Sequence record: SRR2962707_526
Direction: 5' to 3' (one strand)
DNA length: 64,000 nucleotides
Positions 39,910-46,203 of the stretch are shown piece by piece; positions within the stretch are counted from its first letter, which is position 1, and the number at the start of each line of letters is the position of its first letter. The notes beneath the pieces are model-generated. The model worked only from the letters and a program-made list of their open reading frames with translations, was not told the origin of the DNA and ran no database searches. Position numbers and translations under genes: made by a program.

Positions 39910-41067
39910 ATGTTATTAGCCCACTATCAAACCACACGAGAGCGGACTGAATCTCTTTGCGCACCGTTGAACACTGAAGACTATATTCCACAAGCGGCGG
40001 ATTTTACGAGCCCTCCAAAATGGCATTTAGCGCATACAACGTGGTTTTTTGAAGAGATGATTCTGACCAAATATGTGGCAGATTATGTGGTTTTTGATGG
40101 TCACTTTGGTTTTCTGTTCAACAGCTATTATCACAGTGTGGGGAAAAAAGCAGTGCGTGCTCAGCGTGGTTTAATGACGCGCCCCACGGTGGATCAAGTG
40201 TACCAATATCGCCACTACGTGGATGAGCATATTCAAGGTTTGCTCAAGGGCGAGGCACCAGAAGACGTAAAAGAACTGGTCAAACTGGGCATTCACCATG
40301 AGCAGCAACATCAAGAATTGTTGTTGACCGATTTAAAATACACCTTGTCATTAAACCCTATTTATCCGGTGTATCAAGAAGACAGTAATCTAGTGGGCGG
40401 TCATAACCCCGTGGTGGCGGACAGTGAACAGTGGATCAGAGTTGATGAAGGTGTGTATGAAGTTGGTTACGCCGGCGACGATTTTTGCTTTGATAATGAG
40501 CAAGGACGCCACAAGGTGTATTTACAAGATTTTCAAATTTCAGCGTCTTTAGTGACTAATGGTGAATACCTAGAGTTTATCGAAAAAGGTGGTTATGACA
40601 CCTTTAGTTATTGGCTGGATGAAGGGTGGGCGTGGCGTTGTAAGCATCAAATCAACAGCCCCTTGTATTGGACCAAAATAGAAGGCCAATGGCATTATTA
40701 CACCTTAGCAGGGTTAAAACCGTTGGATAGAGATGCACTGCTATCCCATGTTTCCTATTATGAAGCGAGTGCGTTTGCCAGCTGGAAAAAAATGCGATTG
40801 GCCACGGAATTCGAATGGGAAGTGGCGTCGTCGCAGTTTGCTTGGGGGCAGCGTTGGGAGTGGACTTCTTCTGCCTATCAACCCTATCCGAAATTTAGCG
40901 TCAGTGACGGGGCAGTGGGAGAATACAATGGCAAGTTTATGGTCAATCAAATGGTGTTGCGAGGGGCGTCTGTTGCCACGTCTGAAGGGCATTCAAGGGC
41001 GACCTATCGAAACTTTTTCCACCCACATTTCCAATGGCAATATTCAGGCATTCGATTAGTAAAATAA
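39910..41067 (+). CDS. egtB: Ergothioneine biosynthesis sulfoxide synthase (DinB + FGE-like domains)
   Basis: SPPKWHLAHTTWFFE, FNSYY, RG.MTRP, HHEQQHQELL (Fe ligands), WEWT, GEYNGKFM, YRNFF. Confidence 0.88.
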   Translation: MLLAHYQTTRERTESLCAPLNTEDYIPQAADFTSPPKWHLAHTTWFFEEMILTKYVADYVVFDGHFGFLFNSYYHSVGKKAVRAQRGLMTRPTVDQVYQYRHYVDEHIQGLLKGEAPEDVKELVKLGIHHEQQHQELLLTDLKYTLSLNPIYPVYQEDSNLVGGHNPVVADSEQWIRVDEGVYEVGYAGDDFCFDNEQGRHKVYLQDFQISASLVTNGEYLEFIEKGGYDTFSYWLDEGWAWRCKHQINSPLYWTKIEGQWHYYTLAGLKPLDRDALLSHVSYYEASAFASWKKMRLATEFEWEVASSQFAWGQRWEWTSSAYQPYPKFSVSDGAVGEYNGKFMVNQMVLRGASVATSEGHSRATYRNFFHPHFQWQYSGIRLVK

Positions 41068-41181: not shown

Positions 41182-41535
41182 ATGAATACTAACCGAGATA
41201 TCATCGCGCGTTTACGCAGTAATATTCCCTCTTTTGAATGCACTCCAGGCTGTCATGATTGTTGCGGCCCTGTGACCACCTCGTCAGAAGAAATGTCACG
41301 CCTGCCAGTGAAAACAGACGCAGAGCATGACGCCGCCTTAGAAAATTTTTCCTGTGTACACTTAGGGCCAAATGGCTGTGAAGTATACGATGAGCGACCA
41401 TTGATTTGCCGACTATTTGGCACGACGCCAAATCTGGCTTGTCCTAATAGTTGCCGACCGAAAGACATGATCGCCCCTGAGGTTGAAGAGCAAGTGCATG
41501 AGTACATTGCGAGCACGCGACAAGTATTGGTCTGA
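41182..41535 (+). CDS. YkgJ-family cysteine-cluster (CxxxCxxCC) protein
   Basis: CTPGCHDCCG, CVHL...GC.VY.ERPLICRLFG. Confidence 0.85.
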   Translation: MNTNRDIIARLRSNIPSFECTPGCHDCCGPVTTSSEEMSRLPVKTDAEHDAALENFSCVHLGPNGCEVYDERPLICRLFGTTPNLACPNSCRPKDMIAPEVEEQVHEYIASTRQVLV

Positions 41536-41540
41536 GTCTT

Positions 41541-42245
41541 ATGCGCCTTGATAAGTTTATTGCTAAAAGTACCGAGCTTAGTAAGCACGATGTGTTGCAC
41601 AGCATTCATCAGGGTGAGGTGAGCGTCAATGGCGTGGTCGTAACAAAAGAAGCCCAGCAAGTGCATGAGAATAATCAGATTCTCTTAAAGGGTGTTAGAC
41701 TACAGCCACGGCCGTTTCGTTATTTGCTGATGCATAAACCCGCCGGCACGATTTGCTCGAACATTGATGAAGCTTACCCTTCTTTGTTTAATGGCTTGGA
41801 GATTGAGAAACGCTCCGAGCTGCACATCGTCGGGCGATTGGACGCAGACACCACAGGGTTGGTGTTAATGACCGACGACGGTCGCTGGTCTTTTAATATA
41901 ACTCGACCTACGAACGCCTGTTGCAAAGTCTATCGAGTGACCTTATCGCAAGCCTTATCAGATGAGCGGGCAAAGGAAATTAGCGCGCAATTTGCACAGG
42001 GTATTCAGCTGCAAGGAGAGCGCCAGCTTACCTTACCAGCCACCTTACAAGTGATCGCGCCAAAAGACGTGCTGCTGACGCTAACAGAAGGTAAGTTTCA
42101 CCAAGTAAAGCGCATGTTTGCTGCTGTAGGCAATCGTGTAATAGCCTTGCATCGAGAGCAAATTGGCACAGTTCGCTTGGATGTTGAGCTTGGTCAATGG
42201 CGCTATTTAACGCCTCATGAAGTTCAGTCTTTTTTGTCTATTTAA
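41541..42245 (+). CDS. RsuA-family RNA pseudouridine synthase
   Basis: S4 domain MRLDKF, HKPAG, GRLDADTTG (catalytic Asp), EGKFHQVKRMF. Confidence 0.9.
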   Translation: MRLDKFIAKSTELSKHDVLHSIHQGEVSVNGVVVTKEAQQVHENNQILLKGVRLQPRPFRYLLMHKPAGTICSNIDEAYPSLFNGLEIEKRSELHIVGRLDADTTGLVLMTDDGRWSFNITRPTNACCKVYRVTLSQALSDERAKEISAQFAQGIQLQGERQLTLPATLQVIAPKDVLLTLTEGKFHQVKRMFAAVGNRVIALHREQIGTVRLDVELGQWRYLTPHEVQSFLSI

Positions 42246-42307
42246 GCGATTAATAGACGACAAAAGTCAGCCTTACTATTTTATTATTCAGAGCAATTAA
42301 TCCGATT

Positions 42308-43255
42308 ATGACCAGAAAAATATTAAGTTTGAAGGGCAAGCGAGCCAAAGACCTTAACCCAGTAGAAGAAAGCCTTGAGGATCTGTATCCGAATGATCCG
42401 CAAAAACGCTTTCTTAATGGCGTAGCGGTTCATCCTTCTCCCTGCATTCGTCTGGAATCTGGCTCTGCTGAATTGTCGGTTCGTGCTATGGATTTGATTT
42501 CACCGATAGGCATGGGGCAACGAGGCTTAATTGTTGCACCTCCTGGGTCAGGAAAAACGACCCTGTTAAAGCATATTTGTCAGGCTGTGAGTACCGCGTA
42601 CCCAGAGATTAAATTGTATGCTTTGCTGATCGACGAACGTCCAGAAGAAGTCACCGATTTTAAACGCAGTGTGTCCGCTGAAGTGCATGCCTCTTCGTCC
42701 GATAATAGCCATGCTCAGCATGTGCGTATCGCTGACGATTTATTGGACATGGCCTGTGCGCAAGCCGGTGAAGGTCAGAATGTGATGATAGTGATCGATT
42801 CCTTGACGCGCCTGTCACGAGTCCATAATGCAGGCCAACGCAGCAGTGGTCGAACCATGTCGGGCGGTGTTGATGCGCGCGCGTTAGAGATTCCTCGTAA
42901 ACTGTTCGGGGCGGCCAGAAAAATTGAAAACGGTGGCTCATTGACGATTCTTGCGACTGTGTTGGTAGACACGGGAAGCCGCATGGATCAGGTGATTTTT
43001 GAGGAGTTCAAAGGCACCGGTAATATGGAAGTTGTGCTGTCGCGAGAAGTGGCAAGTCATCGAATTTTCCCCGCGTTGGACATCGCCAAAAGCGGCACCC
43101 GACGCGAAGAATTATTAATTGCCCCTAACGACCTTGAACAAGTCAGAACGCTGCGCCGTGCTTTTACCAACCTAAAACCGCTTGATGGCACGCAAAAACT
43201 CGTTACCTTGCTAAAAGAATACCCAACCAACGCCGAGCTGCTTAAGGTGTTTTAA
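42308..43255 (+). CDS. Short Rho-like transcription termination factor (ATPase domain only)
   Basis: PIGMGQRGLIVAPPGSGKT, LIDERPEEVTD, IDSLTRL, SGGVD, FGAARKIENGGSLTI, FEEFKGTGNME, SGTRREE; 315 aa with no N-terminal RNA-binding domain. Confidence 0.9.
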   Translation: MTRKILSLKGKRAKDLNPVEESLEDLYPNDPQKRFLNGVAVHPSPCIRLESGSAELSVRAMDLISPIGMGQRGLIVAPPGSGKTTLLKHICQAVSTAYPEIKLYALLIDERPEEVTDFKRSVSAEVHASSSDNSHAQHVRIADDLLDMACAQAGEGQNVMIVIDSLTRLSRVHNAGQRSSGRTMSGGVDARALEIPRKLFGAARKIENGGSLTILATVLVDTGSRMDQVIFEEFKGTGNMEVVLSREVASHRIFPALDIAKSGTRREELLIAPNDLEQVRTLRRAFTNLKPLDGTQKLVTLLKEYPTNAELLKVF

Positions 43256-43413
43256 GCGCCAGTTGAGCCACCTTTATGGTGGTGGGCTTTTGGGCTGAGA
43301 CGCTGTTGTATTGAGACGCTGCTGTCTTTAACTAAGCGCACAATATTGGCATAGGATCTGTATGCTGCTCGAAAGAGGGTGAACGCTCGTTTCCCCTTTT
43401 TTTATCGCCACTT

Positions 43414-43656: not shown

Positions 43657-46203
43657 ATGGACACACAAACACCTTGTAGCTCACCACTGACCGCTCTTTT
43701 TCCAACCGAATTGGAAGGGTTTGATCAGTTAGCCGAGTTAGCACTCGATTTACGTTGCTCATGGAATCACGCCACCGACGACATATGGCGACAGCTTGAC
43801 CCTGAATTATGGGCACTCACACACAATCCCTGGGGGTTATTGCAAACCGTATCGCGGGAGAAAATCCGCACATTGTTGGCCGATCCGGGGTATCGAGCGC
43901 AGCTTGATAAGCTGGTGAAAAAGAAACGTGAGGCGGAACAAACGCCTGCCTGGTTTCAACAAAATCACCCTAAATCGGCGCTTAATGCGGTGGCTTACTT
44001 CAGTATGGAGTTTATGCTGAGCGACGCGCTGCCTATTTATTCAGGTGGTCTGGGCAATGTTGCTGGGGATCAACTAAAAGCCGCTAATGATTTGGGTGTG
44101 CCTGTCATCGGCGTGGGGTTGCTTTATCAGCAAGGGTATTTCCGTCAGATAATCGATCAAAATGGTCTACAACAAGCCGTGTATCCCTATAACGATCCAG
44201 GGCAATTACCAGTCTCTCCTTTGCGTCATGCGAATGGAGAATGGTTACGCATAAAGCTGGATCTACCGGGTCATCCTATTTGGTTACGTGCTTGGCAAGT
44301 TCAGGTTGGTAGAACAAAGCTCTATTTACTAGACAGCAACGACACCGCAAATTATGCCCCGTTTCGTGCAATCACTAGTGAGCTTTATGGTGGCAGTGCG
44401 GATCTGCGTTTGATGCAAGAGTTGGTGTTGGGCATTGGCGGTTGGCGCTTGTTGAATGCATTGGGAATAGAGCCGGAGGTTTGTCATTTAAATGAAGGGC
44501 ATGCCGCTTTTGCCATCTTAGAACGTGCGCGTTGCTTTATGAAAAAGAGTGGGCAGTCTTTTGCGGTGGCTTTGGCCGCCACGCGAGCAGGCAATGTTTT
44601 TACCACTCACACTGCGGTCGCCGCGGGCTTTGACCATTTCGCGCCCGCTTTGATTGAGCAGTGGCTCGGCGACTACGCCAACCTTGAGTTAGGCATTTCA
44701 ACCCCTGATTTATTGGCGTTAGGGCAGGTGGATGCGAACCATTCTAGCGCTGACTTCAATATGGCGTATTTGGCCATTCGTGGCAGTGGTGCCGTCAATG
44801 GCGTGAGTGCGTTGCATGGTGACGTGAGCAGGCGACTGTTTGCCTCCTTGTTCCCTCGTTGGCCCTTGAACGAGATTCCCATAGGGCATATTACCAATGG
44901 TGTGCACACCCCAAGTTGGGACTCGGCGAGCGCTGATGAACTGTGGACGAAAGCCTGTGGCAAGGACCGTTGGCTTGGCGCCACAGACGAGCTAGGTCAA
45001 TCCATTCGAGCCGTGTCGAATGCTGAGTTGTGGCGTTTTAGAACGGCGGCAAGCCAGACGTTTGTCAGTTACGTGCGCGAGCATCTAGTGCGTCAGATGG
45101 CGGCGTCGGGAACGCCTCAAGCGGACATGGAAGAAGCGCAGCATTTGTTTGACCCTAAAGTACTGACGCTTGGTTTTGCTCGACGTTTTGCGACCTATAA
45201 ACGACCGAATCTATTGCTGCATGACCCCGCTCGCTTACTGCGCATATTAACCAACCCAGAGCGGCCTGTGCAGCTTGTTATGGCGGGGAAAGCACACCCT
45301 GCGGATCAGGCTGGTCAGGCATTGATTAAGCAGTGGATAGACTTTATTCGCCAGCCACAGGTGCGCCAACACGTCATCTTTCTGAGCGATTACGATATGT
45401 TGCTAAGTGGTCATCTAGTGGCGGGTGTTGATGTGTGGTTAAACACCCCGCAGCGGCCCTGGGAAGCGAGTGGCACCAGTGGAATGAAGGTGTTGGTTAA
45501 CGGGGCCATTAATCTCTCTGAGCTGGATGGCTGGTGGGCTGAAGCGTATCGCCCTGATATTGGCTGGGCACTGGGGGATGGTAAAGAGCACGGTGATGAT
45601 CCTGATTGGGATGCGATTGAAGCCGAGGCGCTTTATGACCTGCTCGAACAGGAAGTGATTCCTGAGTTTTACCAACGGGATGAACAAGGCATCCCGATCG
45701 AATGGACAACACGAATGCGTGAAAGCATGGCGCATTTAACGCCTCATTTTTCGACTAATCGAGTGGTTCGTGAATACGCAGAGCTGCGTTATCTTCCGGC
45801 TGCGAAGGCTTTTCGTGAGCGTGCTGCCGATAATGGCGCACTCGCCAAACAAATCGCAGATTGGCAGCAAACGCTTGATCAGCAGTGGGCTGGGTTGCGC
45901 ATTGACGGGGTGATGGCTAGACAAGAAAATCAGCAGTACTTCTTTTCTGCCAGCGTCTTGCTTAATGGTTTAGCGCCACAGGACGTGAGTGTTGAACTCT
46001 ATGCCGACGGTGTGGACGGCAAGGAAGCGCTACGACAGACAATGGTGTGTGAATGCCTACCGGATGACAGCAAAGGCACTCATTTGTATCGTTTAACCGT
46101 GCCTGCGTCGCGCGCCTTAACGAATTACACGTTGCGAATCATACCGTGTCGAGAAGGTATATCTACGCCGCTGGAGGTCAATCATATCGTATGGGAGCAT
46201 TGA
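43657..46203 (+). CDS. glgP: Alpha-glucan (glycogen/maltodextrin) phosphorylase, DUF3417-type N-terminus
   Basis: AYFSMEF, YSGGLG, HLNEGH, TNGVH, FARRFATYKR, GKAHP, EASGTSGMK (PLP Lys), DGWW.E. Confidence 0.93.
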   Translation: MDTQTPCSSPLTALFPTELEGFDQLAELALDLRCSWNHATDDIWRQLDPELWALTHNPWGLLQTVSREKIRTLLADPGYRAQLDKLVKKKREAEQTPAWFQQNHPKSALNAVAYFSMEFMLSDALPIYSGGLGNVAGDQLKAANDLGVPVIGVGLLYQQGYFRQIIDQNGLQQAVYPYNDPGQLPVSPLRHANGEWLRIKLDLPGHPIWLRAWQVQVGRTKLYLLDSNDTANYAPFRAITSELYGGSADLRLMQELVLGIGGWRLLNALGIEPEVCHLNEGHAAFAILERARCFMKKSGQSFAVALAATRAGNVFTTHTAVAAGFDHFAPALIEQWLGDYANLELGISTPDLLALGQVDANHSSADFNMAYLAIRGSGAVNGVSALHGDVSRRLFASLFPRWPLNEIPIGHITNGVHTPSWDSASADELWTKACGKDRWLGATDELGQSIRAVSNAELWRFRTAASQTFVSYVREHLVRQMAASGTPQADMEEAQHLFDPKVLTLGFARRFATYKRPNLLLHDPARLLRILTNPERPVQLVMAGKAHPADQAGQALIKQWIDFIRQPQVRQHVIFLSDYDMLLSGHLVAGVDVWLNTPQRPWEASGTSGMKVLVNGAINLSELDGWWAEAYRPDIGWALGDGKEHGDDPDWDAIEAEALYDLLEQEVIPEFYQRDEQGIPIEWTTRMRESMAHLTPHFSTNRVVREYAELRYLPAAKAFRERAADNGALAKQIADWQQTLDQQWAGLRIDGVMARQENQQYFFSASVLLNGLAPQDVSVELYADGVDGKEALRQTMVCECLPDDSKGTHLYRLTVPASRALTNYTLRIIPCREGISTPLEVNHIVWEH

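Follow-up and report, generated by a model that had tools for sequence, protein, structure and literature searches.

The window, a 64,000-nucleotide stretch of DNA from sequence record SRR2962707_526, carries at positions 42308..43255 of its + strand an intact Marinomonas gene for a headless paralog of the transcription termination factor Rho. The product of 315 residues keeps the fold, the connector and the ATPase/translocase motor of Rho, and a short, disordered tail with a basic tip stands in place of the RNA-binding head. The gene is under strong selection and shows neither decay nor assembly error. Judging from what has been conserved, the protein may well be an active, rut-independent, Rho-derived RNA translocase that works beside canonical Rho, a reading to which we assign a probability of about 0.5. 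It is a further member of a class of sequences that has been catalogued and is functionally unexplored.

An intact Rho motor without the RNA-binding head

The open reading frame (ORF) starts at the first start codon past an in-frame stop and divides into a tail, described further below, and two parts homologous to Rho.

42308..43255, + strand: ORF of the headless Rho paralog, 315 amino acids plus stop; Marinomonas.
42401..42475, + strand: connector, residues 32-56, homologous to E. coli Rho ~130-157, with the motif KRFLNGVAxHP; column conservation 0.85 over residues 34-56.
42476..43252, + strand: RecA-type ATPase/translocase domain, residues 57-315; PF00006 over residues 58-262.

PF00006 (RecA-type ATPase, residues 58-262) was the sole Pfam domain of the protein, which gave no match to Rho_N (PF07498) or Rho_RNA_bind (PF07497) at E <= 0.01. 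The NCBIfam equivalog model for Rho (NF006886) scored 380.5 bits against a cutoff of 315, aligned at model positions 130-412 of 413 only, and TIGR00767 (Rho) scored 354.1 bits, under its cutoff of 509.45. In a phmmer search of the PDB, residues 34-311 aligned with E. coli Rho 132-412 (E = 1.9e-79). This agrees with the sequence-only reading, an earlier annotation made from the letters of the window, which had described a 315-residue ORF with similarity to Rho from the linker on. About 33 residues stand ahead of the connector, and from residue 55 on the E. coli Rho position equals the headless residue number plus 101.

Canonical Rho (Type 1; NF006886/TIGR00767; PDB 1PV4, 3ICE, 5JJI) shares the connector, the motor and the fold with the headless protein, at 45-50% identity to the solved structures. 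The two differ at the N-terminus, where canonical Rho has a helix bundle and the OB primary site (~130 residues) and the headless protein has ~30 disordered residues, basic at the tip. An AF2 model built on a diverse 95-row alignment reached a mean pLDDT of 92.4, and its 50 best fold matches in the PDB were all Rho, with root-mean-square deviations of 1.2-1.9 Å over ~283 columns. FliI/type III secretion and F1-type hexameric ATPases share the RecA-type core (PF00006) but are far more distant (66-86 bits versus 380 for Rho), and they are protein or proton machines without Q- and R-loops.

Searches for a displaced head were negative. A tblastn search of full-length Rho against the whole 64-kb window returned the ORF at 42308..43255 and nothing else. 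Between the end of the upstream rsuA-like gene and the ATG lie 62 bases, which leaves no place for a hidden, frameshifted head; the earlier argument that this gene leaves no room for one is borne out by the gap and by the clean tblastn result. A home-made profile hidden Markov model (HMM) of the N-terminal 130 residues of Rho found no match in the 62 loci of the headless clade at E <= 10, with a sensitivity limited by the fact that it missed the OB-like region of L066, a short Rho form discussed below. A split gene with a separately encoded head was considered and rejected, since in 5/5 genomes the only PF07497 match was the one within the full-length rho.

The short length is uniform. All of the best 120 database homologs, from a ranking in which only the 8000 candidates with most words in common were scored, are 311-354 residues long (120/120) at 76-99% identity, and many lie on long contigs, some of them multi-megabase. 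Their sources include Marinomonas, Neptunomonas, Amphritea, Neptuniibacter, Gilvimarinus and Teredinibacter. Against the copy in a Marinomonas metagenome-assembled genome (MAG; L008), the ratio of non-synonymous to synonymous substitution rates (dN/dS) was 0.012 (dN 0.0098, dS 0.84; 7 non-synonymous and 114 synonymous differences). Against the near-identical copy in genome G001 (L002) it was 0.13, on just 15 differences. Across six gammaproteobacterial genera (15 genome pairs), the headless motor region showed a mean identity of 79.4%, compared with 81.3% for the motor region of full-length Rho in the same six genomes and 15 pairs. The paralog is therefore constrained nearly as tightly as the motor of full-length Rho.

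These data dispose of the idea that the gene is a functionless leftover of rho, decayed or mis-assembled. The lack of two of Rho's three domains, the patchiness among relatives and the published label 'not functional Rho factors' for sequences of this kind (PMC11347177 supplement) would all suit a remnant. A dN/dS of 0.012, 79% identity across genera, a complete set of motor residues and the same length in 120/120 homologs, some on multi-megabase contigs, refute it, and we give it practically no weight. The sequence-only proposal of a second Rho-type motor as opposed to a decaying gene thus holds.

The gene also coexists with a complete rho, which the earlier annotation had proposed to look for. 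G001, in which 3.85 kb of the window locus recur at 98.4% DNA identity, has the headless gene and, on another contig, a complete rho that scored 704 bits over model positions 1-413. A full-length rho was likewise present in 5/5 other gammaproteobacterial carrier genomes and in 5/5 carriers of Planctomycetales, Omnitrophota, Desulfococcaceae and Phycisphaerales (in G011 the match spans model positions 3-354 only), giving 11/11 carrier genomes in total. The headless protein is 45-50% identical to the full-length Rho of its own cell.

A headless clade in several phyla and its place among known Rho types

A maximum likelihood tree of the motor region (74 rows; quick IQ-TREE run with SH-aLRT support only, midpoint-rooted for drawing) places the window protein inside a 16-row gammaproteobacterial group with a support of 100. 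This group lies within a 46-row headless clade that also contains Planctomycetia/Omnitrophota, Elusimicrobiota and Desulfococcaceae, at least four phyla, and that is split from the other 28 rows at an SH-aLRT of 99. Those 28 rows include the 11 full-length Rho from the carrier genomes (one group, support 97), OB-keeping verrucomicrobial paralogs and a few short forms. The conserved short clade with dN/dS well below 1 that the earlier annotation suggested searching for is accordingly found: the clade has 46 rows, and the comparison of the window gene with L008 gave 0.012.

With planctomycete and omnitrophote members of the clade the headless protein shares 64-68% identity, and with its own cell's Rho 45-50%; together with the tree, this indicates that the loss of the head is old. 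The clade either has crossed phylum boundaries or is older than them. On vertical descent versus transfer within the Gammaproteobacteria, the identities of headless and full-length Rho correlate at r = 0.47 over 15 non-independent pairs. The tree suggests several independent head losses, subject to a caveat from L066 (Tepidisphaeraceae, 364 amino acids). This protein aligned to Rho model positions 51-413 and has a divergent OB-like region, so the short forms outside the clade are heterogeneous and not all headless. Species-representative genomes yielded 576 relatives, of which 80 were kept. Among the 80 are Halomonas/Vreelandella, Marinobacter, Glaciecola/Paraglaciecola, Colwellia, Endozoicomonas, Microbulbifer and Cycloclasticus, and outside the Proteobacteria Planctomycetota, Omnitrophota and Elusimicrobiota, plus a Desulfococcaceae MAG.

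The class had already been listed in print, contrary to the novelty that the earlier annotation implied. The supplement of Moreira et al. (2024, NAR 52:8979, PMC11347177) counts 28 'Rho-like ATPase domain' sequences in 28/2730 genomes, with Marinomonas arctica and Colwellia psychrerythraea among the carriers named. It calls the sequences 'not functional Rho factors', yet well conserved with essential residues. By the definition given there, an ATPase/bicyclomycin-binding domain alone, the window protein belongs to this class. The supplement's entry only lists the class, to which we add selection data, a phylogeny with a cross-phylum clade, the substituted positions, the architecture of the tail and the gene context, with its lead toward RNA modification.

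A second, shorter Rho with a conserved motor is also described as Group B (D'Heygere 2013, cited in PMC11347177), Type 4 or NF041509 (paralog_Rho2). These paralogs lack only the helix bundle and keep the OB domain, whereas the window protein is without OB. Against NF041509 (360 positions), the window protein scored 321.6 bits versus a cutoff of 628, over model positions 67-358, and 11 short Rho proteins of other lineages also fell under the cutoff, at 308-418 bits. The verrucomicrobial OB-only paralogs fall outside the headless clade on the tree. In a 2025 review of Rho (PMC12360218), the word 'paralog' is used only for RfaH and 'truncated' does not appear.

Motor residues kept, motor positions changed and the N-terminal tail

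The residues of the motor discussed in this section, given below in E. coli Rho numbering unless stated otherwise, map to the window as follows.

42536..42559, + strand: Walker A / P-loop APPGSGKT (E. coli APPKAGKT, 178-185), from the phmmer alignment.
42632..42640, + strand: D109-E110-R111 (E. coli D210, catalytic E211 and R212; motif DERPEE); E and R in 46/46 clade members.
42797..42811, + strand: Walker B D164-S165 and arginine valve R168 (E. coli D265, S266, R269); 46/46 clade members.
42824..42874, + strand: H173 (E. coli Y274) and the Q-loop region, residues 177-189 (E. coli 278-290), with R178 at P279.
42968..42982, + strand: R-loop DTGSR, residues 221-225 (E. coli 322-326), from the alignment and the R-loop definition in PMC1950744.
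43100..43102, + strand: arginine finger R265 (E. coli R366); 46/46 clade members.

Every clade member (46/46) keeps K184, E211, R212, D265, S266, R269, G287 and G288, and likewise L320, T323, G324, S325, G337, N340, R353 and R366. K181, within Walker A, is G in 32/46. Walker B DSLTRL aligned to E. coli DSITRL, the Q-loop SGRTMSGG to SGKVLTGG, and the arginine finger segment SGTRREE to SGTRKEE. The motif list of the sequence-only reading therefore stands for Walker A, DERPEE, Walker B, the Q-loop and the arginine finger. Its R-loop label does not, since FKGTGNME corresponds to E. coli 335-342 and the R-loop is defined as E. coli Rho residues 322-326 (Chalissery et al. 2007, PMC1950744). The window protein is also identical at the 11 bicyclomycin-pocket residues listed by Moreira et al. 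(PMC11347177), namely P180, K184, D210, E211, R212, D265, S266, R269, L320, T323 and G337.

An intact pocket could mean that the protein is a decoy that sequesters Rho inhibitors, whether bicyclomycin or motor-binding phage proteins of the Psu type, and so spares the essential Rho. The 11/11 identity would fit such a role. The pocket residues are also catalytic or structural, however, so that motor function explains their retention. A decoy would further require production in large excess and would make the conservation of the pore loops and the N-terminal motif needless. With no toxin, phage or antibiotic context in 62 loci and only a 26-bit P-loop match from PADLOC, we consider the decoy very improbable. 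On sequence grounds, the retention of every catalytic and RNA-translocation residue (46/46) argues against any purely passive decoy or poison subunit.

The conserved nucleotide site bears on a different role, in which headless subunits enter mixed hexamers with Rho. Such a modulator would leave fewer rut-binding heads per ring and tune the strength or specificity of termination, the head function being provided in trans by full-length subunits. The nucleotide site of Rho lies at the boundary between subunits, and its residues K184, E211, R212, D265, R269 and R366 are present in 46/46 clade members and 11/11 full-length Rho. Moreover, full-length Rho accompanies the headless protein in 11/11 carrier genomes, the hexamer-cohesion motifs sit in the motor domain (PMC12360218), and hetero-hexamers have been proposed in print for other two-Rho species (PMC11347177). 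Nevertheless, the paralogs are just 45-50% identical and separated by a deep cross-phylum split, which would have left ample time for the interfaces to become insulated, and a pure modulator needs no full catalytic and pore conservation in 46/46. We regard this role as unlikely, though it deserves to be kept in mind.

The positions that changed in the clade, taken as those invariant or nearly so among the 11 full-length Rho, set the headless motor off from the canonical one. P279 is P in 11/11 full-length Rho and never P in the 46 clade members, where it is K, R, A or S. Y274 is H and K283 is R, each in 42/46, and K326 is mostly R. Compared with the 11 full-length Rho, the clade also shows M219 to F, T231 to S, F232 to S and K298 to R; K257 is G in 46/46, and the surface helix 238-257, invariant in full-length Rho, has diverged. 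In E. coli Rho, Y274D and P279S/L were isolated as termination-defective (PMC1950744). P279S/L abolished termination in every condition assayed, P279S being beyond rescue in all of them, and Y274D and P279S dropped ATP affinity 5- to 8-fold; the authors likened the Q-loop to a 'rudder', proposing that it steers RNA from the primary site to the pore (PMC1950744). The remodeled part of the headless motor is thus the one that normally takes RNA from the head, and positive charge has been gained there in most gammaproteobacterial members.

A second group of changes affects canonical hydrophobic positions, which are now charged, polar or aromatic in the clade. V203 is K/R in 43/46 members and M/I205 is Y in 42/46. 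V/I228 is H, R, W or F and never V/I in the 46, W381 is never W, and I382 is mostly K or A. V203, V227/V228 and I382 are, we assume, positions of the pocket for the NusG KOW domain; if this assignment holds, the canonical NusG dock has been lost. When the headless protein was modeled together with the KOW domain of the G001 NusG, the predicted complex scored 0.00, which is uninformative either way.

These changes make it doubtful that the protein is an adaptor-loaded terminator, whose motor NusG or another RNA-polymerase-bound factor would bring to the elongation complex at rut-less sites. NusG-KOW does promote closure of the Rho ring even on C-less RNA (PMC7819879, citing Lawson 2018), and NusG offsets defects of the primary binding site in vivo (PMC4150792). 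The bicyclomycin pocket and the motor are, in addition, fully Rho-like. On the other side stand the clade-wide change at V/I228, W381, V203 and M/I205, all hydrophobic in the 11 full-length Rho, and the divergence of helix 238-257. In pre-termination complexes, a headless protein would also be unable to form the contacts that depend on the N-terminal domain.

The segment that replaces the head consists of two short parts.

42308..42349, + strand: basic tip MTRKILSLKGKRAK, residues 1-14.
42350..42400, + strand: variable acidic spacer, residues 15-31; net charge mean -4.85 (n = 121).

The earlier description of about 34 residues with a basic tip ahead of the linker was accurate, and the tip proved to be conserved. 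In 121 gammaproteobacterial sequences it follows the motif MTRK(I/T)LSLKxK(R/K) with a mean column conservation of 0.78, and the net charge of residues 1-14 averages +5.5 (range +4 to +7). Conservation is 0.58 over residues 15-33, and the conserved connector motif DPxKRFLNGVAxHP comes next after the acidic spacer. The AF2 model shows no secondary structure over residues 1-29, where pLDDT is ~60. Clade members from the other phyla carry basic tails rich in Arg, His, Pro, Gly and Gln, after which comes a brief acidic stretch ('DEAE/SEAE'). Across the clade, the common substitute for the Rho head is a disordered tail of basic character. At seven Elusimicrobiota loci (L059, L061, L063, L065, L068, L069 and L073), the frames run 80-340 residues upstream of the motor as Gly/Arg/His/Gln-rich, low-complexity sequence; the start codons there are uncertain, and hence also the tail lengths.

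Gene neighborhood, proposed mechanism and meaning

In the window, the headless gene follows two genes on the same strand.

41182..41535, + strand: YkgJ-family CxxCxxCC zinc/iron-chelating protein (PF03692), 5 bases upstream of the rsuA-like gene.
41541..42245, + strand: RsuA-like 16S rRNA pseudouridine synthase (Pfam S4 and PseudoU_synth_2).
42246..42307, + strand: spacer of 62 bases; folding energy -5.4 kcal/mol, z -0.14.
43265..43296, + strand: weak hairpin followed by UUUU, a possible terminator; z -0.96, no better than shuffles, with a silent consensus scan.

The RsuA-like protein scored 236 bits against NF008097, under the cutoff of 275, and was over the cutoff of the pseudouridine synthase subfamily TIGR00093. 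The arrangement of an rsuA-like gene before the headless rho is shared with L002 and L008. No terminator-like or promoter-like sites were found on the + strand of the 62-base spacer; co-transcription of headless rho with the rsuA-like gene is possible, and the ykgJ-like, rsuA-like and headless rho genes may form one unit. A contig from an RNA library crosses the ykgJ/rsuA junction, which is no proof of a single transcript. Further out, positions 39910-41067 encode a 385-residue protein with DinB_2 and FGE-sulfatase domains, presumably the architecture of EgtB-type sulfoxide synthases (ergothioneine/ovothiol). An 848-residue alpha-glucan phosphorylase with an N-terminal DUF3417 lies at 43657-46203, about 400 bases downstream of headless rho. 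Run X1 contains a related strain with 16 bases missing at 43296, in the intergenic DNA downstream of the ORF, and small indels at 42260 and 42269, in the spacer between rsuA and rho; the flanks thus vary between strains, and the ORF at 42308..43255 is conserved.

A conserved operon partner was looked for across the 62 clade loci and rejected, with no neighbor family in more than 9 loci and none universal. Gammaproteobacterial loci have a close same-strand downstream gene in 2/30 cases, and headless rho is often alone or last in its unit. Membership of a defense system was rejected as well: the sole PADLOC hit was mad8, a P-loop match of 26 bits across 57 residues. Nor did the surroundings of the gene in the 62 loci point to toxins, phages or antibiotic clusters.

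At 22/62 clade loci, an immediate neighbor belongs to RNA modification or remodeling. These neighbors are DEAD-box helicases (8), PF10672 RlmI-type methyltransferases (5), pseudouridine synthases (2, plus the window rsuA), RNase T-like exonucleases (2), ABC-F proteins (2), and one each of a SpoU methylase, a MYG1 exonuclease and a RIO kinase. The same categories account for 11/489 genes at relative positions 2-10. The categories were picked after inspection and related loci are not independent, which makes this a lead and not a result. In five Omnitrophota/Planctomycetales MAGs (L042, L043, L044, L048 and L051), a PF10672 gene adjoins headless rho and in four of them overlaps or nearly abuts it; ABC-F genes lie two or three genes off in L042, L043, L047 and L051.

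Because RNA-modification and helicase genes are neighbors in 22/62 loci, we tentatively consider that the headless clade may be no terminator at all. Its members could be hexameric RNA translocases acting on rRNA or ribosome-assembly intermediates or on other structured ribonucleoproteins (RNPs). On this proposal, which we think improbable as it stands, they would work next to DEAD-box helicases and enzymes that modify rRNA, unwinding RNA or stripping it, perhaps to the benefit of cells in cold marine habitats.

For the rut-independent translocase that we favor, the motor domains would most likely assemble a Rho-like ring, with RNA held in the central pore by the retained Q- and R-loops. ATP would be hydrolyzed via Walker A/B, the catalytic Glu, the arginine valve and the arginine finger, with 5'-to-3' translocation. 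Since the whole primary binding site is gone, rut sites would be unreadable. Instead, six disordered basic tails per ring, together with K/R at P279 at the pore entrance, may capture RNA with no sequence specificity. The changed hydrophobic positions suggest that Rho's usual protein partner at that surface is probably not used. Candidate roles are rut-independent termination and the remodeling of RNA or RNPs in connection with ribosome assembly or rRNA modification. There is a precedent in E. coli, where stable contact between RNA and the primary site is required at only some of the terminators (PMC4150792).

Several observations weigh against this translocase. The gammaproteobacterial tail has only ~14 basic residues before the acidic stretch, and so short a tail could equally be a protein-docking or autoinhibitory peptide. 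Given the defects of P279S/L and Y274D in E. coli Rho, the clade substitutions could mean a weakened motor and not a re-tuned one. The data do not separate homo-hexamers from mixed hexamers. Searches of the full-text literature, mostly outside subscription journals, found no functional (biochemical or genetic) study of a headless Rho. Expression is weakly indicated: a single study, with two samples, yielded RNA-library contigs over 42468-42618 and 42911-43121 at a depth of 2-4.5, where DNA carry-over is possible and the uncovered parts are uninformative. The expression on which the earlier annotation had made its proposal depend is thus hinted at for part of the ORF.

The distribution counts on the same side. 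In an even sample of the class (400 Gammaproteobacteria genomes, including four unpublished ones), a Rho-type match was present in 378/400, and an orthologue of the headless protein (E <= 1e-110) in 1/400, G001. Orthologues were found in 8/81 genomes and 6/67 genera of the order and in 2/3 genomes of the genus. Headless rho is not universal in its lineage, and this patchiness marks it as an accessory gene that relatives can dispense with. G483, of the same genus as G001 and 100% complete, had no headless orthologue at E <= 1e-110, and the two form a natural presence/absence pair. G330 was the sole other genome of the 400 with two Rho-type matches at E <= 1e-60.

Rho is the textbook ring helicase that is loaded via an RNA-recognition crown. 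Here the crown is long gone and the motor is still conserved, a natural experiment that asks whether a Rho ring can be loaded without its primary binding site and what other uses the Rho motor may have. The gene is non-universal and occurs in harmless, easily cultured marine Marinomonas, Halomonas and Marinobacter, which makes these questions directly testable. At present, the database name 'transcription termination factor Rho' for headless genes overstates what is known of them.

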